Notes under the pieces: model-generated
Databases searched by the model: none
What the model was told of the DNA's origin: nothing
What the model saw: only the letters and a program-made list of their open reading frames with translations
Shown: one piece after another, positions 9,770 through 61,845 of the stretch
Layout: each line of letters begins with the position of its first letter
Position numbering within the stretch: position 1 is the stretch's first letter
Origin: an uncultured Candidatus Saccharibacteria bacterium
GTDB lineage: Bacteria > Patescibacteriota > Minisyncoccia > Phycocordibacterales > UBA2100
DNA: 64,000 bases
Assembly (NCBI GenBank): GCA_964648335.1
Contig: CAZYLZ010000003.1
Span: 7,100-71,099, forward strand
Direction of reading: 5' to 3'
Position numbers and translations under genes: made by a program

Positions 9770-9778
9770 ACTAATGTT

Positions 9779-11998: not shown

Positions 11999-12014
11999 TA
12001 ATCATCACTAATGT

Positions 12015-12626: not shown

Positions 12627-12686
12627 CGATTGCTTTGTTCCCACACAAACGCCGTTTGTGCGTGGTTTGATTGCTATACTGTATTC

Positions 12687-13178: not shown

Positions 13179-13180
13179 TT

Positions 13181-13846: not shown

Positions 13847-13869
13847 CGAACGGGTGATAGAATGTTCCC

Positions 13870-15789: not shown

Positions 15790-15794
15790 CCTCC

Positions 15795-20277: not shown

Positions 20278-20464
20278 AAACGCATCATACCTCTAATGGG
20301 ATAAAATTTCAATAGCTTGGCCATTAGTATGGATTCTCTGTCTATTTCGTCGGATAAGGGGTTGTCCTTTGAGTTATACACAGGTTACCCACACCTTTAA
20401 GCTCCATAGGGGTCAATAGGCGATTGAAAGCGATTAGGTATAATGGCTCCACCTTAGGGTGCGT
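20278..20464. promoter_or_regulatory. rpmH/dnaA divergent control region with a perfect TATAAT and a DnaA-box-like site
   Basis: TATAAT at about 20439-20444; TTATACACA (one mismatch to TTATCCACA) at about 20374-20382; intergenic between divergent rpmH and dnaA. Confidence 0.4.
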
Positions 20465-32061: not shown

Positions 32062-32143
32062 GTGGTAGAAAAAATGAATGAATAAAGAATAAAAAAGAGG
32101 TGTGGTGGGGCGATAATCGCCCCACCGACCCTCCAAGTGCTCG

Positions 32144-33645: not shown

Positions 33646-36057
33646 ATGACCGCTGCTACGAAGAAGGTGACAGGCAGTAAACGGCTTGTGCTCTTGGATG
33701 CGCATGCCATCATCCACCGCGCATACCACGCACTACCTGACTTCGCGTCATCGACCGGAGAGCCGACCGGCGCCCTCTATGGTCTCTCCTCGATACTCAT
33801 TCGTATCATCCAGGATCTCGAGCCCGACTACATTGCGGCATGCTTCGATCTTCCACAGCCTACGCATCGCCACGAAGCGTTTGAAGGATATAAAGGCACA
33901 CGCAAAGCGACCGACGACAATCTCGTGGCACAGCTCAAGCGCGCACGGGACATCTTTGCGGCATTCTCGATCCCAATCTACGAGGCCCCAGGATTCGAGG
34001 CCGACGATTGTCTGGGAACTATAGTGCACGAACTCAAGAAAAAACCGATTGACATCATCATTGCTTCGGGGGACATGGACACGCTCCAGCTAGTCGAGAA
34101 GAAGAAGGTGCAGGTGTATACACAGCGAAAAGGACCTAATGATATCGTGCTCTATGACGAGGATGCCGTGAACACCCGGTACGGATTCGGTCCGCTGCGC
34201 ATACCCGATTACAAAGGTCTCCGCGGAGATCCGTCGGACAACATTCCAGGCATAAAGGGGATTGGAGAAAAGACTGCAACTCAGCTCATAGTCGCTTTCG
34301 GTACCATCGAGGATATCTACAAGGCACTCAAGAAGGATGACGAAGCCTTGCTGAAAGCGAATATAAAAGGAAAGACTGCAGAGCTCATCAAGGCAGGCGA
34401 GGACGAAGCGGTCTTCTCTAAGATGATCGCGACAATCCGGACCGATGCACCTATCAAATTCGAGATCCCCAAAAAAACCTGGACGGACGGTCTCGATGCG
34501 CAGAAGATCCTTCGGATGTTCGACGAACTCGGGTTCAGGTCGCTTATGCCGCGTGCAAAGAGTCTGTTTGGTATAAAAGAGAAAGGGGAAGAGGTTACCG
34601 GTAACCTCCTTGCGACCGAGCCGGAAAAACCAAAAGAGGCAGTCGATGACCGAGAGCTCAGAGAGACAACTATCGCGCTGTGGCTCCTCAACTCCGACGT
34701 ATCGTACCCGGAACTCGACGACGTCCTGCGCTACGGAAAGACTGAGAGCTTTGCCACTGCAAAGGCGAAGATCTTCGCGGACCTTACTGCTACCGGGCGC
34801 CTGTTCGAGGTCTTCGAAACTATCGAGAAACCACTTATTCCGGTAGTAGAGGCAATGTGCAAGCGCGGCATACGTCTCGATACAAGGTATCTGGCAGACC
34901 TTTCTGCCGAGTACCATACGGTACTCGAGGGCATATCGGCTCGCATCTTCGGACACGTTGGTCACGAGTTCAATATCAGCTCACCAAAACAGCTGGGTGA
35001 CGTCTTGTTCGACGAGCTCCAGCTTGGAGGCCCTAAGCAAAAGAAGACCGCGGGCGGTCAGCGCTCTACTAAAGAAGAGGAGTTGTTGAAACTTGCAGAT
35101 TCGCATCCGATCATCGGCGAGATACTCAGTTTTCGCGAGCTGAGCAAGCTCGTCGGTACCTATGTCGACACCTTGCCGACTATGGTCGATTCTGATTCGC
35201 GTTTGCATACCCGCTTCATGCAGGCAGGCACCACCACCGGCCGCATGGCGTCTTTGGACCCTAATCTCCAGAATATTCCTATAAAGACCGAATACGGCCG
35301 ACGTATCCGCGAAGCATTCGTTGCCGACAAGGGGTACCGGCTCCTGGCTATCGACTACTCGCAGATCGAGCTTCGAATTGCAGCGGCCCTGTCGGGCGAT
35401 ACCAAGCTCATCAGTATCTTCAAAAGCGGGGGTGATGTTCATGCTGCCGTCGCTTCACAGGTGTTCAAGGTTCCAGCTGATGCTGTCGACCGCGAAATGC
35501 GCCGCCGGGCAAAGGTGATTAACTTTGGCATCATTTACGGCATGGGTGTGAATGCGCTGCGCCAGAATCTCGGGAGCGATGTCTCACGCGATGAGAGTGC
35601 GCAGTTTTTGGCAGATTACTTCGATAACTTCCAAGGACTCGCGGCATATTTGGAAAAGGTAAAGGCCGACGCTGCGCGTCTTGGCTACACCGAGACCCTC
35701 TTCGGACGTCGCCGCTCGTTTGCTGGCTTCCGGTCTCCATTGCCGTATGTCCGCGCACAAGCCGAGCGAATGGCGATAAATGCGCCGGTGCAGGGAACGG
35801 CAGCAGACGTGATAAAAAAAGCGACCGTCGATGCAGACCGGATGCTCTCGCGCGAAGGACAGCAAGAGAATGTGCGTCTCTTGCTCCAGGTTCATGACGA
35901 ACTCGTTTACGAAGTAAAGGCGGATCTCGTCGATTCTATGGCGCAAAAACTACGCCATGTCATGTGTGCGGTCGTTATGCCCGAGCAGTTGGGCGGAGTG
36001 CCGTTGGTGGTCGATGCAAAAACAGGGAAGAACTGGGGAGATATGGAAAAGATATGA
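33646..36057 (+). CDS. polA: DNA polymerase I (5'-3' exonuclease + polymerase domains)
   Basis: N-terminal FEN-like domain (LLDAHAIIHRAYHAL, GIKGIGEKTA); polymerase motifs A (DYSQIELR), B (RRRAKVINFGIIYGMG) and C (LLQVHDELVYE). Confidence 0.9.
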   Translation: MTAATKKVTGSKRLVLLDAHAIIHRAYHALPDFASSTGEPTGALYGLSSILIRIIQDLEPDYIAACFDLPQPTHRHEAFEGYKGTRKATDDNLVAQLKRARDIFAAFSIPIYEAPGFEADDCLGTIVHELKKKPIDIIIASGDMDTLQLVEKKKVQVYTQRKGPNDIVLYDEDAVNTRYGFGPLRIPDYKGLRGDPSDNIPGIKGIGEKTATQLIVAFGTIEDIYKALKKDDEALLKANIKGKTAELIKAGEDEAVFSKMIATIRTDAPIKFEIPKKTWTDGLDAQKILRMFDELGFRSLMPRAKSLFGIKEKGEEVTGNLLATEPEKPKEAVDDRELRETTIALWLLNSDVSYPELDDVLRYGKTESFATAKAKIFADLTATGRLFEVFETIEKPLIPVVEAMCKRGIRLDTRYLADLSAEYHTVLEGISARIFGHVGHEFNISSPKQLGDVLFDELQLGGPKQKKTAGGQRSTKEEELLKLADSHPIIGEILSFRELSKLVGTYVDTLPTMVDSDSRLHTRFMQAGTTTGRMASLDPNLQNIPIKTEYGRRIREAFVADKGYRLLAIDYSQIELRIAAALSGDTKLISIFKSGGDVHAAVASQVFKVPADAVDREMRRRAKVINFGIIYGMGVNALRQNLGSDVSRDESAQFLADYFDNFQGLAAYLEKVKADAARLGYTETLFGRRRSFAGFRSPLPYVRAQAERMAINAPVQGTAADVIKKATVDADRMLSREGQQENVRLLLQVHDELVYEVKADLVDSMAQKLRHVMCAVVMPEQLGGVPLVVDAKTGKNWGDMEKI

Positions 36058-36755
36058 TCTACCTCTATCTCGGGGAAGATACGATACTCGCGCGTAAGAA
36101 GCTACGCGAAGCGGTAGACAAGCTCGTGGCGCGCGTACCGGACGCCGATGTCCTCACGATCAATGACGAGAATTATGGTGACGAAAGCATCGACCTACTC
36201 CTACGGGAGCAGGGCCTTTTCTATAAGAAGCGCATACTCATACTCGACGGAGTATTCTCGACCGATGAGCCCGAAGCGTACCTCAAGGCACTGAAAGGGA
36301 TGGAGCAGTCCGAGCACGTGATCTTTGTGCTCGAGCGAAAACTGGACGCAAAAACAAGAAAACTTTTTGAAAAGCACGCGGCAAAGATAACCGAGTTCGA
36401 TACGGCAGAAAAGAAAGCGGCGCACTTTGACGGATTTGCGATCGCTGATCATCTCGGTTCCAAAAACCGCAACGAGCTCTGGCTTGCGTACCGTCGCGGC
36501 ATCCTGCGCGGCGAGCCAGCCGAGCGAATCTACGGGCTCTTATTCTGGGCTGCTAAGGCGCTCTACGCTGCGGCCATAAGCGAGACCCCGAAGGATGCCG
36601 GGCTTAAGGAATATCCGTTTACCAAAAGCAAGCGTGCGGCAAAGAACTTTACACAGAAAGAGCTCGCCAGGATCGTGGCAGACCTGTCGGAGCTGCCTGC
36701 GACCGCGAATATGGAAATGGAGTACGCCCTCGAGCGCTTCGTGCTTTCTATCTAA
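36054..36755 (+). CDS. holA: DNA polymerase III δ subunit-like (HolA family) candidate
   Basis: Start ATG overlaps the polA stop (ATGA); MIYLYLGEDTILARKKL N-terminus and size resemble δ-subunit N-terminal regions; weak similarity only. Confidence 0.5.
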   Translation: MIYLYLGEDTILARKKLREAVDKLVARVPDADVLTINDENYGDESIDLLLREQGLFYKKRILILDGVFSTDEPEAYLKALKGMEQSEHVIFVLERKLDAKTRKLFEKHAAKITEFDTAEKKAAHFDGFAIADHLGSKNRNELWLAYRRGILRGEPAERIYGLLFWAAKALYAAAISETPKDAGLKEYPFTKSKRAAKNFTQKELARIVADLSELPATANMEMEYALERFVLSI

Positions 36756-36781: not shown

Positions 36782-38119
36782 GTGTGCATAAGACCTTTTG
36801 ACGTACTACCTAACTCGCGTAGCATTGCAATAACTATGAAATCACACTCTCTTATGCGTCTATGCATCGTCTCCACGATTCTATTCCTTAGCTGTTCAGT
36901 ATTAGTCCTTATGATTCCGGTTCCTGCAAACGCAGTATCGACCGCTTGTATACGCTGTGGTCTCGGACCCAACGATCCTCCCTGTGGCCAGGTCTGTCCC
37001 GACAATACTAATCCGCAATGTGTCGGCGTCTGCACTCCTGGTGTCGGAGGCGACCCTCAGCAGTGCAAGGCAATCAAGTGTACTCAGGGAGATGGATTGG
37101 AAAGCAAGGCGGCGGCGGGCGGAGCAGAGCAGGTCATGAAGATGGCCCAGGATCTGTTAGGAAAGCTCATGCAAGGCGGCGGCGGGGGAGGTGGTGGTGA
37201 CACGCCACAAGCGCCGGTGCAGCAACCTACAACGCCGACGTTGGGCGACAGCTTGCTCAACAATCTCGGCGACCTTAGTAGCGGTTCGAGCTCGATTGGC
37301 GCCGCTTTGAGTAATATTACCGACTCACTGTTGAATGGCAGCACGGCCGAACTCCCGAAAAGCACGGTCACTACCACGTTTGCGACGTCAACGGCGGCGA
37401 CGACCGGTAGCGATGCGGCCGACGATACGGACGACACGACAAAGAAACCGTCCCTCGCGACCGGTTTCGAGAAGCCCAAGTCGGGCTTCGGCGCGTTTTT
37501 CGGTGGAGAGGGCGTGATAAACAGCATCTGCAAATCAAAACCCTGGGAGACGTCAGTGGTGTCGCAGATCTTTCCACCAGCATTCTTCGATTCACTTTGT
37601 TTCAAAATTGGTTACGTAGAGCCTCGACCGGCAGCCAAGGCACCCACTGCGGTCGCTCAGGTACGAGCAAAGCTCTCGTGTCCTGCCGGAGCACGACCTG
37701 GCGATTCTGTTGTAATTGCATGGCAATGCCCAGCAGGGTCGAGAAGTTCTGGTGTCGGATTTGACACGAAGGGACTTTCTCGCGGAGAAGTCGAGATTGC
37801 CGTTGGGTCTTCGACGCGCCGGTTCGATCTTGCGTGCGGACAAGGCGGGTCCGATTCATGTGTTGTCGAGGTGGTCCGTCCGGTGGTGCAAATTGTGGCA
37901 CATCCGGCGCGCGTACCGCTCGGAACTCGATCGAAAGTTTTCTGGACCTCGTCGGGCGTTGTGAGCTGTGAAATAATCGGCCCTAACTTTAAAGAGACAG
38001 GCGTGCAGGGCGCCGCGACGACTGGAACCATCCTCGAATCCACTCCATTCACGATCACGTGCAAAACCGCAGGAGGTATCACGGTCACGGAGTCTACGAC
38101 GATCGATATCGGCAAATAA
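36782..38119 (+). CDS. secreted Cys-/Gly-rich protein, family member 1 (conserved C-x-x-KPW...FFD-x-LC motif; C-terminal Ig-like domain)
   Basis: Signal/TM; Cys-rich N-terminus; Gly-rich helix LLGKLMQGGGGGGGG; motif ICKSKPWETSVVSQIFPPAFFDSLCFKIGYVEP; C-terminal domain paralogous to 38123..39853. Confidence 0.6.
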   Translation: MCIRPFDVLPNSRSIAITMKSHSLMRLCIVSTILFLSCSVLVLMIPVPANAVSTACIRCGLGPNDPPCGQVCPDNTNPQCVGVCTPGVGGDPQQCKAIKCTQGDGLESKAAAGGAEQVMKMAQDLLGKLMQGGGGGGGGDTPQAPVQQPTTPTLGDSLLNNLGDLSSGSSSIGAALSNITDSLLNGSTAELPKSTVTTTFATSTAATTGSDAADDTDDTTKKPSLATGFEKPKSGFGAFFGGEGVINSICKSKPWETSVVSQIFPPAFFDSLCFKIGYVEPRPAAKAPTAVAQVRAKLSCPAGARPGDSVVIAWQCPAGSRSSGVGFDTKGLSRGEVEIAVGSSTRRFDLACGQGGSDSCVVEVVRPVVQIVAHPARVPLGTRSKVFWTSSGVVSCEIIGPNFKETGVQGAATTGTILESTPFTITCKTAGGITVTESTTIDIGK

Positions 38120-38122
38120 GCC

Positions 38123-39853
38123 ATGGTACGTTTGCTCAAGTACGCCGGCACACTCACGCTAATCGTTTACATAACGGCACCAATCTCGACGTACGCGGCC
38201 TCGACGGGACAGGCGGTAACGCAGACGGTGGTCGCCACCGGCGTCGGTATCGGTGGCGCGATGCTCGTAAGCTCACTCATCCAATCACCGTACTCAAAAT
38301 GGCCGGTGACGCCGACGAACCCCGATTGTCTCTTCCGTTCTGTCGTTGTGACTCCGCCGGGAAACAGCGAGCCGCGCAATCCGAACCCTAACGGTAAAGA
38401 CCAATGTTTTAACTTTTGTTTCTACATCGACCCGGTCACGGGTCCACAGGCATGTGTAAATCCTAACTCGGGGGGAAGTGTCTTATCCAAATTTGGTGGA
38501 ATCGGCGGCGGTGCGGCGGCGAGTCCTCTGTCCAGTTTCGTAAACGGGCTCGCACAGGGGATAGGGAACGGGCTCGGGTCTGCGCTCATAGGTAAGCTTT
38601 TTCAGGGCGGATCGGGTAGTGGATCTTCTGGTGGGGTGGCAGGGCAAAACTGCACGCTCATGTTTACATCAAGCACTATCGCCGTCGTCCCCATTGGATG
38701 CGGCTGTCCCGACCCGGCAACGATTCCGGCCGGCGTCACCGTTTCTGGTTGCATGAGCGCAGTATCGCAACAACTTCTTGCGCAGCCGATTGCGCCTTAC
38801 GATTCTGCTACCACCACCGCGTCGATACAGATCGATCCTGGATTGGGTACGATCCCTGCGACTCAAAGTCCTGATGTGGTCACTACAGTCCGTGCCGAAG
38901 CAGAAGGGCAGGGTCCGGTAATAGGTAGCGCCACAAGGAGGACTGGTACTGCGACCTTGGCCCCGACAATGCTGCCATCTGCCGCCAAACCCGCACCATC
39001 ATTAATGGAGAAGCTCAAGCTCTCGGATGTCGCACAACAGACGTATACAATCGAAGAGCGAGATACCTCAAACCCAACACAAAGTACTCCGTCCTCTCTG
39101 GGGTCCTCGGTACCGGTTTTCGAGACCTCTCCTAAAAAAGACAGTGTTATGGGTTTTTCGGGGAGCGCTGCGACACAGCAGTCTTCGTCGGGGATCATAA
39201 ACACGACATGCTCCTCGCGCCCGTGGCAGTCGGGGCTCATGTCGCGACTCTTTGCTCCGGCTTTTTTCGATTCGCTCTGCGAGCGATATGGGTTTGTTCA
39301 ACGTCCTACCGCGCCTGCAGCAGCGTTTGACACGACGACGGCAGAGAGGAGAGTGCGGGCTCCGGCATCGGTACGCGACGACTCTCTTATAGTGACGCGG
39401 CCCGACAAAGGTATCTCGTGCATTCCCAGTGTCGTAATGGCAGAAAAACCTATTACGCTTTCGTGGTCATGTGGCGCCTCGAGCGTCGTTCAGACCAAGG
39501 GATTCACCGCGACAACCGGAGGGGCCAAGAGCATGACACCATCGTCTAATGCTACGTACGGCATCGTCTGTGCCGATGGGTTCGAGAGTTCGTGCGCGGT
39601 GCGCGTGATCCGTCCGACTGCACAGATAGCTGCTCGCCCCGCTTTGGTGCGCCTTGGTACGCGCACGACCATCTATTGGCGAGGTGTGGATATGCAGTCG
39701 TGTTCCGTTTCTGGTCCGGGGGTGCAAGCGTCTGGTCTTGAGGGTGCCATAATGACGCCACCAGTAAACGAGGTTACTACCTACTCGCTTGTCTGCGCAC
39801 GCCTCGACGGAGCGACGAGTACCGCGCATGTCTCGGTCGATATTGGAGGTTAG
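38123..39853 (+). CDS. secreted Cys-/Gly-rich protein, family member 2 (paralog of 36782..38119)
   Basis: Signal peptide MVRLLKYAGTLTLIVYITAPISTYAAS; Gly-rich LIGKLFQGGSGSGSSGG; motif CSSRPWQSGLMSRLFAPAFFDSLCERYGFVQRP; C-terminal ...SCSVSGPGVQASG...VSVDIGG matching member 1. Confidence 0.6.
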   Translation: MVRLLKYAGTLTLIVYITAPISTYAASTGQAVTQTVVATGVGIGGAMLVSSLIQSPYSKWPVTPTNPDCLFRSVVVTPPGNSEPRNPNPNGKDQCFNFCFYIDPVTGPQACVNPNSGGSVLSKFGGIGGGAAASPLSSFVNGLAQGIGNGLGSALIGKLFQGGSGSGSSGGVAGQNCTLMFTSSTIAVVPIGCGCPDPATIPAGVTVSGCMSAVSQQLLAQPIAPYDSATTTASIQIDPGLGTIPATQSPDVVTTVRAEAEGQGPVIGSATRRTGTATLAPTMLPSAAKPAPSLMEKLKLSDVAQQTYTIEERDTSNPTQSTPSSLGSSVPVFETSPKKDSVMGFSGSAATQQSSSGIINTTCSSRPWQSGLMSRLFAPAFFDSLCERYGFVQRPTAPAAAFDTTTAERRVRAPASVRDDSLIVTRPDKGISCIPSVVMAEKPITLSWSCGASSVVQTKGFTATTGGAKSMTPSSNATYGIVCADGFESSCAVRVIRPTAQIAARPALVRLGTRTTIYWRGVDMQSCSVSGPGVQASGLEGAIMTPPVNEVTTYSLVCARLDGATSTAHVSVDIGG

Positions 39854-40431: not shown

Positions 40432-40800
40432 TTAGAAGGGAAAATCGATCCCAAAGGGCCCGGGGCCCGTGATGATAAGCGACACGGCCATTATTAGTGC
40501 CAGAGCGATGGTGCTCGACGGGTAGGAGGAAATGCGGGGGCGAGCCAGCCAGGCACAAAGAATGGCGGCAGCCACGAGTGCCGACGCCTGGGTGTAAACA
40601 CCGAGCACAACCGCAATAGCGACGAGTATTTCGAGAAGTGCCAAAATACGGTAGAGGGGTGTGCGAGCGGCCGAGATGCGCGACCATCCTGCGCTGCCGA
40701 TGATAAAGCCTATCGCCATGCGCATCATGAGGGCCGAGAAGGGTGCGAGAAAGAGTATCTGCGGGAAAAGGCTCGGTATTAGATTAAACATCGCAAGCAT
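40432..40800 (-). CDS. DoxX-family small membrane protein
   Basis: Four hydrophobic helices in 122 aa with a DoxX-like layout (MAIGFIIGSAGWSRI...LALLEILVAIAVVLG). Confidence 0.55.
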   Translation of the reverse strand: MLAMFNLIPSLFPQILFLAPFSALMMRMAIGFIIGSAGWSRISAARTPLYRILALLEILVAIAVVLGVYTQASALVAAAILCAWLARPRISSYPSSTIALALIMAVSLIITGPGPFGIDFPF

Positions 40801-41301: not shown

Positions 41302-42816
41302 ATGTATCGGTATGCAATCGGTCTCTCTGTTGGTGTTGTAACCGGGTTCAGTGTCTTTACCGTTCCATTTTTTGTACATGCAGCATCCGAAGAGGTCTGT
41401 ATCGAGGTGCGCAAGACTGGAGTAGAGTGTGACGCGTCGACTCCCGAGTCGACAATCGATAAGAGACTCCTCGGTGTCACGGGCGGCATTACTCCTACCC
41501 AAGCAGAAAACGCACTCGCTGCCTTTTTGTGCCCTGGATTCAAGCTCGGCTATGATCAATCTATCGATCCTGCGCAATTGAAAGAAAGCAGGGTCTACTT
41601 TACAGCAGGAACAGCGACGATGGACCCGAGTTTTGCAAAATGCACGGCTCAGTTTTTTACTGAGGCTAACGCCGCAGGGATCTACGGTCGCGTTTGTATC
41701 GCTGCAGCACTCAGATCTGTCGACCATCAAAGGGCATCGTGTCTCGATCGGTCAAATTCGCAGGCATGCGGCCGCAAGAATAATTGCACCTCGTTTGCTG
41801 GTTGTCCGCATGTGAACGGTATAGCCATCGACTTGCGCCAGAACGGAGGAGTTCCGACACCGAAGTTGATTGCATTTGCAGCATCCAAAGGACTCAAGCT
41901 TGGTTTCGTGCCTAATGACTCGTGGCATATGGAGCCAAACGGCGCCGGCTGTGCTCAATCTGGATTTACAAATCCGACCGTTGCAGGACTGAGCTCGGCC
42001 TCGGGAGGGATGGACCCACTCGGAGGAGGTGTACTTTCGGGAGGGGGTACTGGGGGACTGTTCGGAACCGGATCGAGTTTCTTGAGCGGAATAGCGCGCG
42101 GGGTCGGGACGGCTGTCGGTATGCAGATAGTGCAAAGCCTTTTCCAGCCAAATTCCAATGTCGGTCTTTCACAAGGCGTGGCAGTCTCATCTCCCTTGCC
42201 CACTCCGGTGCAGAGTCAACAGTCGACATACCTCGACGGTACGTACCCGATCTTTGGGCAAAGCAAGCTCAGCAGCGACCTTGCAGCGCTCTTGCGGAGT
42301 GTCACCACATCACCGACGACGGTCATCGTAAGTGGTGCCGTCGTCCCAGCACCAAAGCCTACAGAAAAGACGATCGCACTCTCAGGCATCACCGAAGGGG
42401 GAGTTCGCGTGGTACCGACCGTGCCACGTCCGCAGGATGTTGTGGTGCAGCCGATCATGGCAACCGGCATGCAATCATTCGACACAACAGACCCTCGACA
42501 CTCATCCAATCTTGGTATCTCAATCGAGTCATCCTCGACGGCGACTTCGGCGCCGCAGGCAATTGTCACGACACGAGAGGTCGAGGACCAGCGACTGGCG
42601 TACGCCACTATCGATCAGGTTGCCGAGCGGCAGCGCAATCTCGGAAGCGGCGCGTTTTATGGCGACGCGACCGATGACGGTAGGAGCAAAACATTCTTGG
42701 GGCGCCTGTGTGTTACGAGGCCGTGGGCCACAGGATTGTTCTCATCGATACTGAATCCGCAGCCGTTCGACAACTACTGCATCATGCACGGATACGTAAA
42801 TGAGTCGGTCGAGTAG
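41302..42816 (+). CDS. secreted protein with M15 (VanY/D-Ala-D-Ala carboxypeptidase-like) zinc peptidase motifs and the family C-terminal motif
   Basis: Signal peptide; CPHVNGIAIDL (H-x-x-G-x-A-x-D) and DSWHMEP (x-W-H-x-E) match M15 zinc ligand blocks; Gly-rich stretch; C-terminal CVTRPWATGLFSSILNPQPFDNYCIMHGYV shared with 36782 and 38123 proteins. Confidence 0.6.
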   Translation: MYRYAIGLSVGVVTGFSVFTVPFFVHAASEEVCIEVRKTGVECDASTPESTIDKRLLGVTGGITPTQAENALAAFLCPGFKLGYDQSIDPAQLKESRVYFTAGTATMDPSFAKCTAQFFTEANAAGIYGRVCIAAALRSVDHQRASCLDRSNSQACGRKNNCTSFAGCPHVNGIAIDLRQNGGVPTPKLIAFAASKGLKLGFVPNDSWHMEPNGAGCAQSGFTNPTVAGLSSASGGMDPLGGGVLSGGGTGGLFGTGSSFLSGIARGVGTAVGMQIVQSLFQPNSNVGLSQGVAVSSPLPTPVQSQQSTYLDGTYPIFGQSKLSSDLAALLRSVTTSPTTVIVSGAVVPAPKPTEKTIALSGITEGGVRVVPTVPRPQDVVVQPIMATGMQSFDTTDPRHSSNLGISIESSSTATSAPQAIVTTREVEDQRLAYATIDQVAERQRNLGSGAFYGDATDDGRSKTFLGRLCVTRPWATGLFSSILNPQPFDNYCIMHGYVNESVE

Positions 42817-42838: not shown

Positions 42839-43885
42839 TCAGTACGACCAGACACTTACCGTCCTTCCTTGTGCATCGAGAAGCCGTAGTACATCGTGTC
42901 GATCTTGCCAGAGTCCACGCTCGGATCCCAAGTACAGCCGCCATGTGCCGTCGGTAAAATCGGCGCGCCAGCGATGTTGCTCAACGCATCCATTGTACGA
43001 GATAGCTTGCCGCACAAAAGACGCGCAGGCGGGCGATACAGAGGTAGGGAGTTCGCCGATGAAATACGTGCAGCTCGGCATCGACGCAAGCAATTCGAAG
43101 CATGATTCGCCGTACCGTGCGAGGTTGTCGGGGGTGGGAACGAGTTCGGTATCCGGCGCAGGACACGAGCGAGAAAGGTCGGGAGCGAACTCTTGGAACT
43201 GCGTCAGGTATCCGCTACAGACGTTCTCGCGAAAGCTCGTCCCGACCGGCGAGGTGCCGCTCGTTACGTATATCGATTCGCCCGGGCCGAGTATCACATC
43301 AGAGAGGGGAGCGACCTCGCCGACTCTAAGGGCTACCGAGCCTCTTGGTAGATATGCACGCACTCCGGTGATCGCACTCTGAAGCGACCATCCCGACAAA
43401 GATACGTTCTTTGAATTGCCGTATGGTGACGTAAGCTGCAAATATTCTTGATGCGGATCAGACTCGCGCGGGGCACTAGCATTTGATATGGAAATTGCTC
43501 CCTTAAAGGGGGATATCTCGCCAAAAGTTTTGGCCTCGTTCACTTTTTTTGCAAGGTCTGCGTACTCTTGGTCGAGATCCGAATACCGGTCCTCGATACC
43601 GTACAGAGTATCGGCCTCTGACGAACCTGCAGAAATTGAAGACCCTGTGCCGCCGAGAGCGGCCTCATCGAGCGATGAGGGGAGCGGGATACCGGGCATC
43701 TTCGGTGGCGGGAAGTACAAAAAAGATGTGCCGGTCGCTATCTGGCCTCCAAGTAAAACGCCAAACGGATTTGCAAACTGGCCCGACTTGCTGAGTATCT
43801 GCTTACCTGCGCCGCCGGCGATCCATGCGACCACCAGTACGATCACGATCACAAAAAAAAGAATCAAGAGGACACGCTGTAGCAT
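42839..43885 (-). CDS. N-terminally membrane-anchored hypothetical protein (possible lamin-tail-like C-terminal domain)
   Basis: TM helix LLILFFVIVIVLVVAWIA; C-terminal ...WRLYLGSERGLWQDRHDVLRLLDAQGRTVSVWSY loosely LTD-like; weak. Confidence 0.45.
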   Translation of the reverse strand: MLQRVLLILFFVIVIVLVVAWIAGGAGKQILSKSGQFANPFGVLLGGQIATGTSFLYFPPPKMPGIPLPSSLDEAALGGTGSSISAGSSEADTLYGIEDRYSDLDQEYADLAKKVNEAKTFGEISPFKGAISISNASAPRESDPHQEYLQLTSPYGNSKNVSLSGWSLQSAITGVRAYLPRGSVALRVGEVAPLSDVILGPGESIYVTSGTSPVGTSFRENVCSGYLTQFQEFAPDLSRSCPAPDTELVPTPDNLARYGESCFELLASMPSCTYFIGELPTSVSPACASFVRQAISYNGCVEQHRWRADFTDGTWRLYLGSERGLWQDRHDVLRLLDAQGRTVSVWSY

Positions 43886-46584: not shown

Positions 46585-46693
46585 GTCGGTCGTACTGTAG
46601 CATGTTTTTCGAGAATATCTATCTTTCTGGGACAGGCTGGTGCAATCCACTGTGCAAAGCGTTGGAAAAGGTGGGGGAGTGCCGCATGATATG

Positions 46694-49423
46694 GCTATGC
46701 ATCGATCTCGCGGCTCTGCGTCGTTGTTAGTAAATCTCTTCTCATTCGCCATAGTCGCTGGATTGTCACTCGGTGCCAGCGCCTATAGCCACGGCAAGGT
46801 CGCGCTCGGCATCGACGTGCCACAACGCTCGCAGATGACTGCAGCGGCAGATGCGGCATCGTCGCGCGATGGCGACAATGGTCGAGGGGCCAGTGGAGCA
46901 CCAATCCCGAGCGGTGAAGAGATAGGAAAAGCTAGCGATTGTCCTGCAGGAACGACGCAAAACGTCTCGGCTGCCACCGGCGGAGATAATCCTGGTGAGG
47001 TCGCGATAGTGCAAGCGCCCGGCGCCGATCTTAACTCGTGCGTTGTTTCGTGGGATTCGCCCGATGGGAAAAAAATATTTGTCGCCGGAGCTTCGTCGTA
47101 CGCGGGAGCTATCAGTGCCTGTGGTGGCGCTGCGGCAACCACATGTGTTACACAAAAGATGGAAAGTCAGTTTCCAAACGGCGCCGCAAACGGAACTGCC
47201 GAAACGAAGGTAAAAGAGCTCGCTGGCCTTAAGGGATATGCTGCGCCGTCGGATGTTTTGAATGATGCGTTTGGTGTAGGTGGCTCCGAGGCGAAGGCTG
47301 CAGTGGAGAAAGAAGTCGAGAACAATCTTAAAGCGCTCGAGGCATATACCAATAAGACGATTAGCGCGACCGACGACAAAGACAAAGAAAGGCTTGGGTT
47401 AGGCACGGCCAACCTCGAGACGCTTAAAGAGTCGGTCGGCCGCATCCCAGCGGGGGACAGTCCGTTCAAAACCGACCTGCAGAATGAGCGATTAAATACA
47501 ACACCTGCGGGCGAGACTAAAACCAATCCGATAGGTAATACGTTCGGATCTCATCGTGCTGATGAACAGACTTCGATGGAAGCTCTCGATCGTTACAATT
47601 CAAAAAAGGAACTCGCGGGTACGTTCGGTGCTAAAGAGGCCGCTCTACAGATTGCGCGCAACGCATACGATGCCGGATTGCGAAACGATCTCACTAACGA
47701 CGAGATCTCTGCGCTTGCGAGGGATAAGGCAAAGGCAGAAAGCGAATATGAAGCCGCACTTAAGGCTAAGAATGAGCTAGATGCATCGAATAAAGAAAAT
47801 GCGTTGGCTAAGGCAGGTCCGTGCACGGCAGGTTGGCCGGCATGTGCTATTCGCGAAAACATCGTGAACCCCATACGGCAATTTATTGGGTGGGCACCTA
47901 TCCAAGAAACGCCCGGTGCTGGCGGCGTAAAAACTGAAACCGCAGTTGCGGGCGCTGCGACAACAAATACGGTTCCAACTACGCGCGAAACTGTCTCGAA
48001 TTCCGTAAACCCTGCCGATGCCTTTAAGGGCAACGAAAAACTTATCGCTGATTCCGATGAGCGACTCCATGCGGCGGTCGAAGGATATACGAAGGATGTA
48101 CCCACGGTGAGTGATCGCGACCACGATAAGGCATATGTCGAGAGTTGGGAGGCGCGCAAGGCGTATATCAACAACCTCGAAAAAACGCTTGCCGACCCCA
48201 AGACTCAGGAAGCGGGCAGCGCAGAAATTGGAAGAAAGCTCGATGCCGCACGAGCAGATTTAAAAGAGTTCGAAGGTCAGTTCAAGAAGGGGGCAGGGAG
48301 CCCTGGGGGCGCAGAAGAACTCCAGGCAATGAAGGATAGTCTGGGTGAACAAGCAGCTGCTGATAAAAAATCAGCAGACGATGCAGAGGCAGCGCGAAAG
48401 CGCGCCGAGCAAGAGGCTGCAGACCGCAGTCGCGTCGGGGGTGGAAATGGTGGCGGAGGGAGCGGAGGCGGGGGTGCAAATAAAAGTATCGCAGATGTGT
48501 TGAGTGGACTCATGGGTGGCGGGCAGAATTCGGCAGAGTGCGAGGCCGCAAAGTCGCAGTGCAGCGCAAATAGAAGTACGGCTGCGTGCCAAAAGGTTGC
48601 GCAGTGCCAGTCGCAAAGCAGCAACCCACTCTCGCAGCTCGGACAGATGCTCGGTAAAGCATTGGGCGGCGGTGGAAGTAGCGGGAGTGCCGCACAACCC
48701 GGTAGTGTTGCAGCGAATGCGGCGTGCAATGCGTATCCAGGAACGACGCTTACGAACGGGCAGTGTGCGTGCCAGCAGAGCGGCTACTCGTTCTACCAGG
48801 CAGGGACGACGCTTAACGGCGCGCCCGTACCGACATCGGGGTGTTACGCACCATCGGTTGCAGCTGGAACCAATCCTGGCGGGCAGACGCCTGTTGCCAC
48901 CATCTCGTGCGCAACAAATGCCGCAGATGTCGGTATGACGATTCCAGTCTCGTGGTCGTGCCAGAATTCGGTCACAGCGCGCGTCGACGGATTTACTCCC
49001 GCAGCACAAGAATTGGCACAGCTCTCGGGCTCGAGCCAAGTTACTGTCGCCAAACCAGCAAGCGGATCAAGCGTCGACTACACGGTCACGTGCATTAATC
49101 AGGGACAGACCGACGTAAAAAAGTGCACGGTCGCGATAGGTCAGCCTGGTCTTGCAATTGTTGCCATTCCCGACCGGCCCGAGGTAGGTAAGACGTCAAT
49201 CATCGGATGGTACTCGACCGGCATGAGCTCGTGCAGTATCAAGGGAGGAAGGATGAAGGGAGGTACCGGATCTCCAATCGACGAATTTACCAAAGAGGGG
49301 ACGAGCGGGTCAATAACCTTGCCACCCATAGAAGACGGCGATGTTTTCGAGGCAGGGCTTGCCTGCGTAAGTACGAGCGGACAGACAACCACCAAAGGAA
49401 TCGAGATAAGGCAGAAACAATAG
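46694..49423 (+). CDS. large secreted coiled-coil/Gly-rich protein with C-terminal tandem Ig-like domains (family-related)
   Basis: Signal/TM (LLVNLFSFAIVAGLSLGASA); long Lys/Glu/Ala coiled-coil region; Gly-rich (GGGNGGGGSGGGG; LGKALGGGGSSGS); C-terminal ...TIPVSWSCQNS...VTCINQG... β-sandwich repeats resembling C-termini of the 36782, 38123 and 50452 proteins. Start could be 46640. Confidence 0.6.
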   Translation, partial: AMHRSRGSASLLVNLFSFAIVAGLSLGASAYSHGKVALGIDVPQRSQMTAAADAASSRDGDNGRGASGAPIPSGEEIGKASDCPAGTTQNVSAATGGDNPGEVAIVQAPGADLNSCVVSWDSPDGKKIFVAGASSYAGAISACGGAAATTCVTQKMESQFPNGAANGTAETKVKELAGLKGYAAPSDVLNDAFGVGGSEAKAAVEKEVENNLKALEAYTNKTISATDDKDKERLGLGTANLETLKESVGRIPAGDSPFKTDLQNERLNTTPAGETKTNPIGNTFGSHRADEQTSMEALDRYNSKKELAGTFGAKEAALQIARNAYDAGLRNDLTNDEISALARDKAKAESEYEAALKAKNELDASNKENALAKAGPCTAGWPACAIRENIVNPIRQFIGWAPIQETPGAGGVKTETAVAGAATTNTVPTTRETVSNSVNPADAFKGNEKLIADSDERLHAAVEGYTKDVPTVSDRDHDKAYVESWEARKAYINNLEKTLADPKTQEAGSAEIGRKLDAARADLKEFEGQFKKGAGSPGGAEELQAMKDSLGEQAAADKKSADDAEAARKRAEQEAADRSRVGGGNGGGGSGGGGANKSIADVLSGLMGGGQNSAECEAAKSQCSANRSTAACQKVAQCQSQSSNPLSQLGQMLGKALGGGGSSGSAAQPGSVAANAACNAYPGTTLTNGQCACQQSGYSFYQAGTTLNGAPVPTSGCYAPSVAAGTNPGGQTPVATISCATNAADVGMTIPVSWSCQNSVTARVDGFTPAAQELAQLSGSSQVTVAKPASGSSVDYTVTCINQGQTDVKKCTVAIGQPGLAIVAIPDRPEVGKTSIIGWYSTGMSSCSIKGGRMKGGTGSPIDEFTKEGTSGSITLPPIEDGDVFEAGLACVSTSGQTTTKGIEIRQKQ

Positions 49424-59400: not shown

Positions 59401-61845
59401 TCGATCGTGCGGGTCGGCACGATGATGCCTGATACCGCTGCGATCGTGAAAGCATTCGACGAATGCAAGAACGCAGGCGTGTGCGCCGCAAATGCGAAGC
59501 TCACGTTTGATATCAAGAGCAAGAATAGCTGGCGCAGTACTTCGGCAGATAGCAAACCGGTAGTGTTCGAGATAGAGGCAAGGGAGGTGCAGTCGGCCGT
59601 CGCTGCGAAGCCCGCCGCCCAATCTCCAGGGAATGGATCAGGAGCGCAATCGGCCCGGTTCGTTCAAGGCAACCACACTATCAATCCGTACATCGGGGCA
59701 TCAATGAAGGTTGCTGCTGAACACTGGGGTCCCGAATACGAATTCAGGGTTATCAGCGGTCAGGCGGGGCGGTCGTCAGGTACCAAGAACCACCCGGCAA
59801 ACCGGGCGGTAGACATCACTATCTATAAAAACGGTGTCGCCCTCAAGAATATCCGATCACCAGAGACGTTTGCTGTGTATCGCGACTTCATGCAAGACGT
59901 AAAGCACTTCCAAGATCAGCTGTTCCCTGAGCTGAGGGGTCAAGGACGGTGGGGCGGCTACTTTGTGAGCGGGGTAGGGCAAGACCTGATGCATTACGAT
60001 CTCGATCCTTCAAACGTTATGGCGGCAGGAAGCTGGGAAGGTGGCCTTCGACCGCAATACGCGTTTTATGGAATCCCGGGTGATGTCGGGAAAGGCATGG
60101 GGAATTTGGCGACGTATAAACCGGCAGGTACGAGTGTGGGTGGGCCAAGTGTTGCAGCAGCTCCTGCAAAACCGACCATCACGATCCAAAAGTCGGTTTC
60201 GATAAAGTTGGCAACGCCAGCAATCGCTGACCGTGGTATCGCTGATGCTGGTAGGTTACTCGGTAAAGAGATTTTTAATTATAAAGTTACCGGATCTGAG
60301 TCGACTCATGAGGTAAGGGTATACGCCAGCAAGAACAATGGAGTCTTGGCGGGGTCCCAATCACGGGGAAAAGGAGCGACCCCGACGAAGGCGACGGTAA
60401 GTATCGCCGATATCAACAGTTTGTCGGGGCTTACCGACTATCTCTCTCGTGCATATGCGCGTGGCGTCGTCGCGCCGTCGGTACCAGCTTTGCCGAGGGA
60501 CGGCACTATACGCGTCGCCGCGAACGCGGAATTCCCGAGTGTAGCTAGCGTCGTCAAAGAAGGTCAGGAGATTGGCGGTGGGGCACCAGTGCCACGAGTC
60601 CCGATACCGACGTTCTTGTCGCGTGCTGTTCCAGGAGCCAAAGTAGCAGCACCACGTGGAGGGACCTTGGCCAACGTCATCATGACCGCGCTCGGACTCG
60701 GATTGTTCCCGGTTATCAATCCTGGTCGCGTCTTTGGTCCCGATGATGCAGGTTCGTCAGCAGTGCCTTCGGTGGATACGCTCGACGACGAAGCCGAGCT
60801 CGAGCGTCTCTTGAACGAAGACAAGCCTACGATGACCAAACAGTTCACGCCGACTCCGGTTCAAGCGCCAACACCGGTCAAGCTTCATCTTGATCCAGAA
60901 AAGGGTTGGATGGTGATGACTGAGCAGACAGTGACGCAGACTCCGCCTCCGGGAACGTCACCGGGAGGGGGTGGAAACGGCGGAGGTGGAGGTGGCGCGC
61001 AGCAGAGCCCAATCCAAAAAGCGATGAGTGCGCTCCAGGACATGATGAAGAAAATGACAGATGCTGCAAAGAAAGCGGCCGGTGGAGGTGCCGCTTCGGG
61101 CGCGGCACCGGCGGCGCCGACGAATCCTCCAACCTCTGCAAATACGTCGCCGACTATACGCTGCACTCCTTCGTCAGTTGCATCCGCGACGACCAAGATA
61201 ACCGTATCGTGGACTTGTAGCGGCAGCACATCGTCTGTCGGAACCGGCTTCAGCACCACAGGTAAGGTCTCGGGAGTTACGACGGCCACCATTGCCGCGA
61301 CATCATCTCCTAAAGTGGATCTCACAATCTCGTGTCTCACCAACGCCGTGGTGACCGGTACTGCATCGTGTCCTATTGATGTCATCCATCCATCGGTGGC
61401 CGGGGCTGCCAATCCGTCGACGGTCGAATCAGGCAAAGGGTCTCAAGTCGTCTGGACATCGGTACAGACGACCGGCTGTTCGGTCTACGCGCCGCCGAGC
61501 GTAATGCTTGTTACGGGCGGATCATCGGGGCGCGTCGATACACCGGCCTTGGTACATACCAGTATTTATAAGGTCGTGTGCGGTACCAAGGCAGGAACAG
61601 CCGTAACCGCACCGGTGACCATAGTGGTAGCAGGGGATGATAGCGCGCCCCTTGAAGCGGTCGTTCCTGCAACCGCACAGACGAAAAGCATGACCACATC
61701 CGGTACCTCTGCGTCGGCTTCTGGAGTATCGGGGACAGCAGGAACTGTTGGTGCGACTATAGTAAACGGACAACCGGTGCAGCTGTGCAACCCCGGTGCG
61801 GGGATGACGGCGTTTGTGCACTGTATATCAGGGGGAAGATTTTGA
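50452..61845 (+). CDS. giant secreted multidomain protein (3,797 aa) with amidase_2-like and M15-like peptidoglycan-hydrolase modules and C-terminal Ig-like tandem domains
   Basis: Uninterrupted 11.4-kb ORF; signal peptide; Ala/Gln-rich low-complexity core; YLVMHHQAG...YHTG...YWIKQNGDIVVARRDGTIEAHIGQ...NATGIEFEG (amidase_2/PGRP-like, about 57040-57330); ISGQAGRSSGTKNHPANRAVDI...DLMHYDLD (M15_3-like, about 59690-60010); Gly-rich GGGGNGGGGGG; C-terminal ...ITVSWTCSG...ISCLTN... β-sandwich repeats. Confidence 0.8.
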   Translation: MRRIPQVFSAYVFIIACATVITAVSLLPLRLGAEVGTANCAAGYVEVNGACKPAQENENVGQTNGTDSKTTTSKTNTTDTTHCDLTTFQAAVGGSQSCYEPGVIGGKSGQCSPPPGAATCASLKESAINAMGGGGVGGSVPTKPEDIIFGPETPVQSSGQVIPNSGQQAPLEVVNTKVVNTPSALDRLESMLGLGENGSGDKPTTLLPGPASANLSDYTKFTPYDNGAPQFDMASVRAARAGDAFYDGVMSNLFNNLDSLPMQFTPPNVGDVLSGRIFGPPSTFAPVGTAGFTPTPGTGMAPGQNLVSRSVPTSNVPNPLQSAYDRLTNPFSSSPLAGTAGLPGALLAQMSPSGLASLTPSQQATLQEQLARYQEQQPQNTVFMTTDAAGRPVLAPTPDSLTQPLTSDPFAGESAALARLANGDNLLDPNTPVIPGTTPSDSLKGIVEVSAATPLTPDGASLVSTEDVRDAFQRGNFGEAIAKAGEGMIESTQRLLASIGQGSIKLIGLGAVENTMQSVSDALGFSGTGGVDTLAGSGQDDIPTGDIVYTDANNNDQGTPGAPSGIPAQATPALSQSEKNALAEYQQAQTAANDVANSTDEQVKADAAVAKAQSALEKSGIDPETGQKVVETKPFSPENNPELGGSKERADALKDTNKTTTVTYCDPPNSDCTRFRNVEYRTEAEAKVAEQANKTAESLDRDVKSIQAEQKALADARTWDQKARDLLPDSLRPAPSKDYLICNDADCTNPKQATYNEYKTATDQQIESLKAAEAVEKSKAAYIENGLPSSDKVAEKLSGATLDNQPQRTYYDMFGNEYRNAEAAKGADTIALNNESRAAAISGTEKSVSDMEAQKAKYDADVQAQIDAGKIKQADPFVVTVNQNGKEVKMSFEEYRAQAAASVDAMKQEIADSSKVAQDLKQTFAPRPGDGPSVPPISEEAKMRDLAERKLEETAVLKAVEAKTNQDKEFAAIAKLTDAQRRDQAPQIEARLAQAAKDVNAYTTKAQELAGVVPQTQETKDAVAAVERVLTQGTTQLERNIAGLKDWGKDMTGPVGFMVRSIGGSLGNATELVTSYLPNQPAQVVIGKMFDTNPEFTKFITPVKIAGELVNVVSTPLLLSSPSRAMVESALASQLEARTAALTSSPLISAPSTAAATADSALARAAAVRAEIMDAGIQARFGAPVGTTPVVVESRLAPIASVDAAGNGVVRLEPVVTASSRAEGAVVAEGLPGARAGVGEVVGGGIAREITAADIAAKAPVADSAFGRVAQTIKEAGGPDLLGPAWNKAVAPVETVVSGVEAAGASAARRIDNAVADAYKFMNGSYPPGSFRAFEAQFPAAERAGVSAAVDANAALGRTLSGEAKSAISGYESAAAQAAAERARMEAATAAGRTATARAEVQDALAAARARLEQAGLEPVAADSLAVRTRPQVVPTVVESGATVAELQKGVALDAAATAKAVPVENVSKANAALADTVAAADKGAAARAIKNYESAQADFAKLARENPSSSALDASAARMRSAAQDLAKYDLEPATAGSKVLQKSIVPQKDIVTLTQIEKDVSQAVSKGDYAKAYDALQKERPALAMGDNSQAYLLSPSGRARIELENRLFNYTNEVAQGIRMENALAKAELVNVEAAAKAQPTSFSTNISNAIAACSKGGSCDPRILLTKSLPSPARLLNGAVTASIAFQALAPTVQVARMVETGAARVAVVSTKAASTPYLYGKLAPVVSTDAARVASIKSAVTPAQLAQSYRILASVPEVKAAVASPSVPAAQAAASQATAVGDYATKVGSALKSAGLEATPLAQTMAQVARDPALALAETAPVRAALADATAQARAAAIAASAAGTASVAPVPATPDFRGLNATAPVIAEVLAQQAFLSDRGPTLFEKQQPTILGSAAEFINQVVGITPAVAQGRDICAGNNCGGHKYVGQAMEKIRSVLGYAPGEMGVRIGNGGERYATYANLGEWLAADIIKRQAYVTQLGKDVLLGNDTNRSQDAAWAVPDRDHAQPVAVLRQQRLNAFAKSGLTTEEATTPFTANDIDRIEKISIATACAEYSKCSPDFIPQAERDRARQILARAGIISPQQTVSAPLSVAEKQVAQNAITNAQAAGMRIPTAVAQALTPWAFQERRAVLEGQRIISEVAQNPALTNPAAHAQYTALAQSGGAIQIPGAAGQTIYLPGSEFSSAVPSRQYLVMHHQAGMNALNRATQYHTGAVNVGTRYWIKQNGDIVVARRDGTIEAHIGQIGPSDLDGRKIVSANNANATGIEFEGYGYNTAEQMQSGVALALFLQTRHSISPDRVIPHLKDTDRQEGVAMTQVMRTIAFVPHKAEEQFAKIAQVLQKGIQGIVQAAGQNAATLAAKIQGIQKTLRTVSTPFSDSAVSKTALAQPMFATRSGPQLGAVPAAEAGAVRAAPAAAGAAAVVPSALAVTEALAKASAASDAYKQAATGFVRAVESGDQSLLNSINALSKASDTAYTEAFEAARTYLVEAGATDAVVAAKAKALNERAVSAKAKLASDTASLKQKNAQLAEYVGASDAHAAAMRDIISEAKDLVAKSPSSGISQVRVTTVPVLPVTEKISPPSSLKFRTGSNINPEQARAYLATDASMILGGDPSSEGWDALAKAVKDSGGRLHMYDFGPGGPTNGVMTVAESSEQAAKARELGLARDQWLAGTWNEGKPTGWLKSSTDRIAKYQPYSVEFDNLDRLPWLRNDGAATVSFFKEYQKWADANGVATRVILKNLDQVQWQALAGSIRSGELRGSTFANIAINEGTLVAAPVAKAIGITEVRTTDSGNYPTPNDLRSDPAANAIYAAYPTAESSVGVRTAGVGKVDGFDLAQATKAGVKLSLDPHVLSTASEEVPFKIVYTDPASKLTADLTMADYARLTPSGRKEVQMVVTDGNGKAQALSPAAFDEYMSAKFSVGQSGNAVAQLKSDIEKLTGVKATDMKPLTGKNATTVHSSEAGKYSAVATYRSGDSIVRVGTMMPDTAAIVKAFDECKNAGVCAANAKLTFDIKSKNSWRSTSADSKPVVFEIEAREVQSAVAAKPAAQSPGNGSGAQSARFVQGNHTINPYIGASMKVAAEHWGPEYEFRVISGQAGRSSGTKNHPANRAVDITIYKNGVALKNIRSPETFAVYRDFMQDVKHFQDQLFPELRGQGRWGGYFVSGVGQDLMHYDLDPSNVMAAGSWEGGLRPQYAFYGIPGDVGKGMGNLATYKPAGTSVGGPSVAAAPAKPTITIQKSVSIKLATPAIADRGIADAGRLLGKEIFNYKVTGSESTHEVRVYASKNNGVLAGSQSRGKGATPTKATVSIADINSLSGLTDYLSRAYARGVVAPSVPALPRDGTIRVAANAEFPSVASVVKEGQEIGGGAPVPRVPIPTFLSRAVPGAKVAAPRGGTLANVIMTALGLGLFPVINPGRVFGPDDAGSSAVPSVDTLDDEAELERLLNEDKPTMTKQFTPTPVQAPTPVKLHLDPEKGWMVMTEQTVTQTPPPGTSPGGGGNGGGGGGAQQSPIQKAMSALQDMMKKMTDAAKKAAGGGAASGAAPAAPTNPPTSANTSPTIRCTPSSVASATTKITVSWTCSGSTSSVGTGFSTTGKVSGVTTATIAATSSPKVDLTISCLTNAVVTGTASCPIDVIHPSVAGAANPSTVESGKGSQVVWTSVQTTGCSVYAPPSVMLVTGGSSGRVDTPALVHTSIYKVVCGTKAGTAVTAPVTIVVAGDDSAPLEAVVPATAQTKSMTTSGTSASASGVSGTAGTVGATIVNGQPVQLCNPGAGMTAFVHCISGGRF

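Follow-up and report, generated by a model that had tools for sequence, protein, structure and literature searches.

A conserved Cys-framed mini-domain in secreted proteins of Patescibacteria

Three secreted proteins, here called A, B, and C, are encoded in a 64-kb window (the whole stretch of 64,000 nucleotides analyzed here, from contig CAZYLZ010000003.1) and share a short motif framed by two cysteines. It forms the center of an extracellular mini-domain of ~50 residues that is conserved in secreted, Ig-domain-bearing proteins of Kaiserbacteria-type ultrasmall bacteria and has not been catalogued. With a probability of about 0.55, we read the mini-domain as a structural or docking module that is stapled by a disulfide and belongs to a surface protein specific to this lineage.

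Three copies of the motif in the window

A six-frame regular-expression scan of the window found exactly three complete copies of the motif, all on the + strand, and a profile hidden Markov model (HMM) of the motif detected no fourth copy in any frame. Each copy was recovered by the regular expression, the profile HMM, and a degenerate DNA pattern:

37529-37618, + strand, motif copy in A
39209-39298, + strand, motif copy in B
42709-42798, + strand, motif copy in C

Written as a degenerate DNA pattern, C-x-x-[KR]-P-W-x12-x-F-D-x-x-C matched 3 times, compared with 0.00 matches expected from 100 dinucleotide-preserving shuffles. Chance similarity was rejected. The original prediction, made from the letters of the window, had placed the motif in three open reading frames (ORFs), 36782..38119, 38123..39853, and 41302..42816; the ORFs are present as described, and the scan and shuffle test confirmed a copy in each. 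It had also stated that the motif ends the protein at 41302..42816, where only 6 residues follow it (...NESVE). To call the 33-residue motif "near-identical" in A and B was an overstatement, as 17 of the 33 residues (~52%) are identical.

A motif family conserved across Patescibacteria

The species-representative genomes of GTDB (one genome per species, 185,579 species) were scanned with the DNA pattern of C-x-x-[KR]-P-W-x12-F-F-D-x-[LIVMF]-C, which carries ~39 bits. The scan returned 104 stretches, and 102 of them are true family members with the same protein architecture, almost all from Patescibacteria. The other two are chance matches in ORFs of 33 and 90 aa of Proteobacteria, approximately the number expected for the information content of the pattern. 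With 102 genomes picked and 2 false matches, the mini-domain is a sharp sequence marker. Record names include Candidatus Kaiserbacteria (30 or more), Paceibacterota, Parcubacteria, Nomurabacteria, and Patescibacteria group, and viral contigs gave 0 matches to the pattern. A profile search of related genomes had been suggested as a check, and the proposal that the motif is lineage specific is borne out by its recurrence almost exclusively in Patescibacteria.

An exhaustive HMMER search with an A+B+C profile returned 3331 representative proteins at E<=0.001, most of which match the immunoglobulin (Ig)-like domains alone. Proteins of 430-570 aa formed a distinct set that aligned with the profile from end to end. 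The strict motif expression was found in 47 of the 150 best HMMER matches, and further single-stretch matches keep C...[RK]-P-W...F-D..C with a variable tail. Word-indexed homologue searches returned little: 0 matches for A residues 230-445, only a fragment of C for the motif profile, and only 7 matches for the full-family profile, in which poly-Gly words flooded the candidates.

The motif gene is also present in many TPA assemblies under the title 'uncultured Candidatus Saccharibacteria' (loci L007, L013, L014, L016, L020, L021, and others). Since these assemblies contain the Kaiserbacteria-type gene and synteny, the 'Saccharibacteria' label is probably a pipeline artefact. Locus L058, a 1.8-kb contig in a 'Gammaproteobacteria' metagenome-assembled genome, also holds a true family member, and bin contamination is the probable cause.

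The family consensus consists of a G-F-[YF]-G lead-in followed by [GS]-x-[VI]-x-x-[LWM]-C-x-x-R-P-W-A-x-[NS]-F-L-S-x-I-I-P-P-S-F-F-D-x-L-C-x-x-R-G-Y-x-V-G. Both Cys residues, R-P-W, and F-F-D are essentially invariant across the family, and even degenerate members retain both Cys. In a 39-sequence full-length alignment, C232, P236, W237, F251, C255, and G259 (A numbering) are invariant. Among the genome matches, positions that the search pattern did not demand are conserved as well, namely A6, N/S8, F9, L10, S11, I13, I14, P15, P16, L22, R26, G27, Y28, V30, and G31.

No catalogued family accounts for the motif. Pfam gave 0 families for A and B (E<=0.1) and 0 relevant families for 39 family members, NCBIfam gave 0 matches, and the lowest E in a profile search of PDB sequences was 0.13, a value expected by chance. 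Literature searches yielded nothing on the motif, only the context of type IV secretion systems (T4SS) in Patescibacteria (PMC12102498). The motif therefore stands outside characterised families, as had been supposed from the sequence. A known Pfam domain, or the lack of any recurrence outside this genome, had been named as grounds for dropping the idea, and the searches found neither.

Architecture of the family

Genes A and B contain the complete set of family modules:

36836..38119, + strand, gene A, 427 aa from ATG 36836, full family architecture with two Ig-like domains
36836..36934, + strand, signal-peptide-like hydrophobic segment of A, residues 1-33, ending ...PANA (sequence; AlphaFold2 [AF2] helix 3-25)
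36935..37114, + strand, Cys-rich head of A with 8 Cys; C41, C66, and C77 near-invariant in the family
37115..37198, + strand, amphipathic helix of A (AGGAEQVMKMAQDLLGKLMQ) followed by an 8-Gly run (AF2 helix 94-113; conserved in the family)
37481..37618, + strand, mini-domain of A, G-F-G-A-F-F-G lead-in plus C232...K-P-W...F-F-D-S-L-C255...G-Y-V (regular expression, alignment, HMM, AF2)
37649..38113, + strand, two tandem Ig-like beta-sandwich domains of A, Ig1 ~37649-37873 and Ig2 ~37865-38113 (AF2 confidence 94-98)
38123..39853, + strand, gene B, 576 aa, paralogue of A
38528..38635, + strand, Gly-rich helix segment of B (...GLAQGIGNGLGSALIGKLFQGGSGSGSSGG)
39140..39298, + strand, mini-domain of B, lead-in (..VMGFSGS..) plus Cys motif (regular expression, HMM, pattern)
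39395..39847, + strand, two tandem Ig-like domains of B (BLASTP to A, Ig HMMs)

In the 39-sequence alignment, the modules follow a fixed order: signal-peptide-like segment, Cys-rich head, amphipathic helix with poly-Gly, stalk, lead-in, motif, linker, and Ig-like domain(s). The head contains three near-invariant Cys. The stalk is long, of low complexity, and rich in S/T/D/E/N/G, with PKD-like domains inserted in long members. A beta-hairpin-like stretch ending in G-F-[YF]-G precedes the motif, and the linker behind it is P/T/A-rich. One Ig-like domain terminates 75 of the 86 complete members and two terminate the other 11; A and B are two-Ig subtypes. Head and motif occur together, as 84 of 89 head-bearing ORFs also carry the motif. 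A signal-peptide-like hydrophobic segment was recognized in 82/86 complete homologues, with signal peptides judged by eye and a hydrophobicity window only. The number of Cys in the mature part is even in 83/86, as expected if all Cys were disulfide paired.

The start codon of B lies 3 nt past the stop codon of A, and BLASTP aligned the two proteins with an E of 5e-36 over the motif and ~190 C-terminal residues, which establishes them as the tandem paralogues they had been taken for. B has all family modules, with a diverged head (head domain E=0.011). A-type and B-type proteins form separate orthologous groups, and at least five other genomes (L001, L021, L035, L049, and L090) keep the two as a tandem pair; thus, the duplication is old. 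Gene A had been drawn from GTG 36782, which is probably too early. Its start is probably ATG 36836 (MKSHSLMRL...), because the orthologue P0001 is 427 aa long, all homologues begin there, and a promoter-like site lies at 36798-36825. This site, TTGACG-16-TAGCAT, ends 10 nt upstream of ATG 36836, and judging from its position the transcript of A may be almost leaderless.

The C-terminal domain pair of A recurs at the C-termini of two larger proteins of the window, D (2e-6) and E (7e-12):

46640-49423, + strand, protein D, 927 aa, Ig1+Ig2 pair at 48881..49408 at the C-terminus, without the motif
50452-61845, + strand, protein E, 3797 aa, Ig1+Ig2 pair at 61138..61632 near the C-terminus, without the motif

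In the window, the Ig1 and Ig2 HMMs match no proteins other than A, B, D, and E, and a resemblance between the C-terminal beta-sandwiches of A and B and the 46.6-kb and 50.4-kb proteins had been pointed out from the sequence. By structural matches, these C-termini are Ig-like beta-sandwiches, and the nearest matches are adhesion modules such as ICAM, invasin, PKD, and the GhpA grappling hook. By the same by-eye and hydrophobicity judgement, all five proteins A-E have Sec-type N-termini. The repeat family that includes the Ig-like domain of A and B is very large; many of the proteins matched are giants, some with as many as 28 copies, and lengths reach 4314 aa. These repeats are not covered by any Pfam model, and the proteins P0009 and P0013 lack any Pfam match.

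The original prediction had listed a sorting signal among the possible roles of the motif. A short, strictly conserved motif in secreted proteins could serve a sortase-like or protease system, and in C it does lie at the extreme C-terminus. However, it is internal in A, B, and all 86 complete homologues, with 120-200 folded residues, the Ig-like domains, behind it. No transmembrane segment or basic tail follows, a strongly hydrophobic 19-mer beyond residue 70 was present in 4/86 only, and no conserved sortase- or protease-type neighbor was found. Because the motif is internal and folded domains lie downstream, a role as a sorting or processing signal is essentially excluded. The motif resembles LPXTG, PEP-CTERM, GlyGly-CTERM, and PGF-CTERM in being short, lineage restricted, and located in exported proteins, but it differs from them in its internal position, its predicted fold, and the lack of a following transmembrane helix and basic tail.

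Predicted structure of the mini-domain

A structure prediction of the motif region had been recommended as a check. From the single sequence of A, AF2 reached a mean predicted local distance difference test (pLDDT) of 41, with the motif as the best part. With 39 homologues, the mean pLDDT increased to 71.5; the Ig-like domains scored 94-98, and the stalk was disordered. The motif (residues ~225-260) was predicted at a pLDDT of ~91 as three short helices, 227-234, 241-244, and 248-257, with C232 in helix 1 and C255 in helix 3. The motif had been described as Cys framed, and both framing Cys are invariant in the alignments.

Hydrophobic and aromatic residues dominate the segment between the two Cys, its central prolines are conserved, and a hand calculation with the Wimley-White interfacial scale gave approximately -3.4 kcal/mol for the consensus. 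Disulfide-framed internal fusion loops are found in some viral glycoproteins. By analogy, W-A-S-N-F-L-S-Y-I-I-P-P-S-F-F might dip into the bilayer of the bacterium itself or of a host, and attachment to host cells is the presumed way of life of these bacteria (PMC12102498). However, AF2 gives a compact helical fold at high confidence and not an exposed loop, the same residues can make a buried core, and the family offers no heptad-repeat or trimeric fusion-protein context. We therefore consider a membrane-inserting loop highly improbable.

The same mini-domain on a different head

Gene C joins the mini-domain to a different head:

41302..42816, + strand, gene C, 504 aa, with a different head, Gly-rich helix, linker, and C-terminal mini-domain, and no Ig-like domain
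41389..41946, + strand, head of C with H-x-x-G-I-A-x-D ... D-x-x-H-M (residues conserved in the L001 orthologue; motif read by eye)
42571..42801, + strand, mini-domain of C, G-A-F-Y-G plus C..R-P-W...P-F-D-N-Y-C...G-Y-V (regular expression, HMM, pattern)

Of the family modules, C has a Gly-rich helix and a linker, followed by the mini-domain as its last 50 residues, and no others. B and C align at 1e-9 over the Gly-rich helix region and the motif. From its sequence, the head of C looks like a LAS-type (peptidase M15) metallopeptidase, and searches of Pfam and PDB sequences gave no match in support of this assignment. The same layout occurs in a syntenic gene of L001 with the same module order. 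A metagenome scan for further C-type proteins recovered no genome other than the L001-like one, which it matched by the motif in a B-type protein; hence, the C-type is known from two genomes only.

The layout of C, with a LAS-type-looking head and the mini-domain as its sole C-terminal module, is typical of wall hydrolases that have a C-terminal binding domain, and many peptidoglycan hydrolases bear small helical domains that bind the wall. The mini-domain might accordingly bind peptidoglycan or a secondary wall polymer, either holding the proteins on the bacterium's own wall or targeting a host wall. The region is also rich in wall-active genes, including E with its Amidase_2 domain and the LysM-M23 gene at 1402-2415. 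Nevertheless, the mini-domain matches neither PG_binding_1, LysM, SH3b, SLH, nor any other wall-binding model of Pfam; the peptidase identity of the C head is itself unconfirmed by the Pfam and PDB sequence searches; and in the canonical family the mini-domain has no enzymatic partner. Wall binding is thus a rather improbable role. The combination of a small helical module with an H-x-x-G-x-A-x-D ... H head does recall proteins that pair PG_binding_1 with LAS (M15) peptidases. In contrast to these, C has no Pfam match in either part, the order and spacing differ, and the module is also present in the nonenzymatic A and B.

E, the giant secreted protein, has its Amidase_2 domain at residues 2197-2310. 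Read by eye, its sequence further shows another LAS-like segment (H-x-x-x-x-x-x-D...H), poly-Gly with a helix, and two Cys at the terminus. E is likely a wall-degrading factor. Two further exported hydrolases, LysM-LysM-Peptidase_M23 (1402-2415, - strand) and a Peptidase_M28-like protein (31105-32166, - strand), enlarge the wall- and protein-degrading repertoire of the region.

A proposed stapled structural or docking module

In the reading we favor, the proteins would first be exported by the Sec pathway, and the mini-domain would then fold autonomously, with three short helices packed about an aromatic core (W, F, F, L, I). C232 in helix 1 and C255 in helix 3 would form a disulfide that locks it into a rigid knot, resistant to proteases and flanked on both sides by flexible linkers. 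Residues conserved on its surface (R of R-P-W, D of F-F-D, and R-G-Y) would dock on a common partner located on the cell envelope or on a host surface. In A and B, such docking would set the position of the Ig-like domain(s) at the end of the protein, and in C it would act as a tether for the putatively enzymatic head. Anchoring and binding, both suggested from the sequence, are thus plausible roles, and the whole family most likely serves surface attachment in these host-dependent bacteria.

The mini-domain could instead be a passive spacer, a disulfide-locked bead that stiffens or protects the stalk without a ligand of its own, while the head and Ig-like domains do the binding. It is indeed flanked by two low-complexity linkers in every member, and its conserved residues are mostly hydrophobic and suit the core of a 35-residue three-helix fold. 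However, the R of R-P-W, the D of F-F-D, R26, and Y28 are as strictly conserved as the core in >100 species, and a spacer makes little sense for C, in which the mini-domain is the only C-terminal domain. Because of these strictly conserved polar residues and the layout of C, a binding role is favored over a pure spacer, which we regard as a credible but unlikely explanation.

Several points weigh against the stapled docking module. The conservation of C/R/P/W/F/F/D/C in the 102 genome matches is partly forced by the search pattern; unbiased support for conservation comes from the HMMER matches, the 39-sequence alignment, and the single-stretch matches with variable tails. The disulfide is deduced from the invariance of the Cys and their predicted placement in the helices. 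Much of the conserved hydrophobicity could reflect nothing more than the core of a very small fold, and so the data do not demand a docking surface. The neighboring genes are housekeeping genes and uninformative on function, and the occurrence of the motif on a noncanonical head in two genomes only is thin support for a portable module.

In a bolder idea, the disulfide-framed, aromatic, Pro-Pro-centred segment is a membrane- or envelope-engaging element with which Kaiserbacteria-type epibionts would fasten secreted adhesins and a wall hydrolase to their hosts, in the manner of a disulfide-framed internal fusion loop. More modestly, the mini-domain could be a universal docking tag for secreted heads on one surface receptor or pilus. 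We hold either version to be improbable.

A fixed chromosomal neighborhood

ORFs were clustered in 105 loci (L001 plus the 104 pattern matches), 103 of which carry a true family member. The motif gene has the holA-like gene as a neighbor in 75 loci and polA in 72. Other recurrent neighbors are spoU (45), the LTD (Lamin-tail-domain) protein (44), a small DoxX-like membrane protein (32), pilB (30), and the Mur ligase (24), as well as tsaE and ruvA. In the 39-kb contig L001, the gene order is that of the window: PBP, ruvC, yebC, ruvB, pilB, tsaE, polA, holA-like, A-type, B-type, membrane protein, spoU, C-type, LTD protein, Mur ligase, ruvA, S20, and a large protein. The order polA, holA-like, motif gene is kept across ~100 species, so that a gene for an exported surface protein lies directly behind replication genes. 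In the complete chromosome CP066682.1, the motif gene is located at 64-72 kb. Given these conserved neighbors, the motif gene is a vertically inherited, origin-proximal core gene at a fixed place, probably as a single locus in the Kaiserbacteria lineage. The conserved chromosomal synteny led us to reject phage or mobile-element cargo.

The window itself is part of a Patescibacteria (candidate phyla radiation [CPR]) chromosome near the replication origin:

7847-18573, + strand, monoderm-type T4SS cluster beside dnaA, comprising a Big_6 protein, a VirB6-like polytopic protein, PrgI, a VirB4-like ATPase, and T4SS_pilin
12630-13178, PrgI of the T4SS cluster
13870-15789, VirB4-like ATPase of the T4SS cluster
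18067-18573, T4SS_pilin of the T4SS cluster
20459-21811, dnaA
22044-23153, dnaN
29385-31079, PilB-like ATPase, assigned via synteny with the T2SSE-domain gene of L001
between the PilB-like gene and polA, tsaE
33646-36057, polA
36054-36755, holA-like gene (TIGR01128, 1.7e-13, below the family's curated cut-off)

polA and the holA-like gene overlap by 4 nt, and genes A, B, and C come after the latter. The origin-proximal T4SS of the window has the layout described for Patescibacteria (PMC12102498). A, B, and C lie in this same origin-proximal region, but A is ~21 kb and roughly 20 genes away from virB4, and the conserved neighbors across ~100 genomes are not T4SS genes. No T4SS family was recurrent among the neighbors of the motif gene in the 103 8-kb loci. 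A link with T4SS or pilus genes, which had been proposed for checking across genomes, was thus not close at this scale; instead, the conserved neighbors are polA, holA, spoU, the LTD protein, the Mur ligase, and ruvA. Accordingly, the motif proteins were rejected as components of the T4SS cluster, their neighbors being polA, the holA-like gene, and other housekeeping genes.

Two of the recurrent neighbors are membrane proteins. The LTD protein (42839-43885, - strand), found beside the family in 44 loci, is membrane anchored and Cys-rich in its C-terminal half. A small four-helix membrane protein (40432-40800, - strand) is conserved just downstream of the family in 32 loci. A relative scored exactly at the Pfam cut-off for DoxX (23.6 bits), and the window copy scored below it. 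Thiol and redox functions have been ascribed to DoxX-type proteins and could be relevant to a neighbor that is probably rich in disulfides.

The window also encodes a BTLCP / Peptidase_C93 protein, a LapG-like transglutaminase-like cysteine protease with a signal peptide (26571-27152, - strand; E=3.8e-59), between ruvC and yebC. Its gene looks like an insertion, because nothing separates ruvC from yebC in the syntenic contig L001. LapG-type enzymes free giant adhesins in Proteobacteria, so its presence near the large secreted proteins of the window is curious.

Relation to known surface modules and significance

The mini-domain resembles small three-helix modules of Gram-positive surface proteins (the GA module, protein A domains, and FIVAR), with the villin headpiece as an analogue in fold size: it is a short unit of ~35-55 residues, with three predicted helices and an aromatic core, set like a bead into a modular secreted protein. 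It differs from GA, protein A, and FIVAR modules in lacking sequence similarity to any Pfam model, in its invariant Cys pair, in occurring once per protein and not in arrays, and in its restriction to Kaiserbacteria-type Patescibacteria. At the level of whole proteins, the family shares a signal peptide, a long low-complexity stalk, and terminal Ig-like domains with stalk-plus-tip adhesins such as invasin/intimin, Lap-type adhesins, and the GhpA grappling hook. The mini-domain is therefore a new domain family, although comparable small modules of surface proteins are already familiar, and by itself the finding overturns nothing known.

Patescibacteria (CPR) account for a large share of bacterial diversity and are mostly uncultured, and little is known of the ways in which they attach to their hosts and exploit them. 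As an exported, probably disulfide-rich protein ending in adhesion-type domains, the family described here offers a specific candidate for a factor that acts at the cell surface or in attachment. Defining the mini-domain as a family would annotate hundreds of 'hypothetical proteins', and at ~50 residues the module is tractable.

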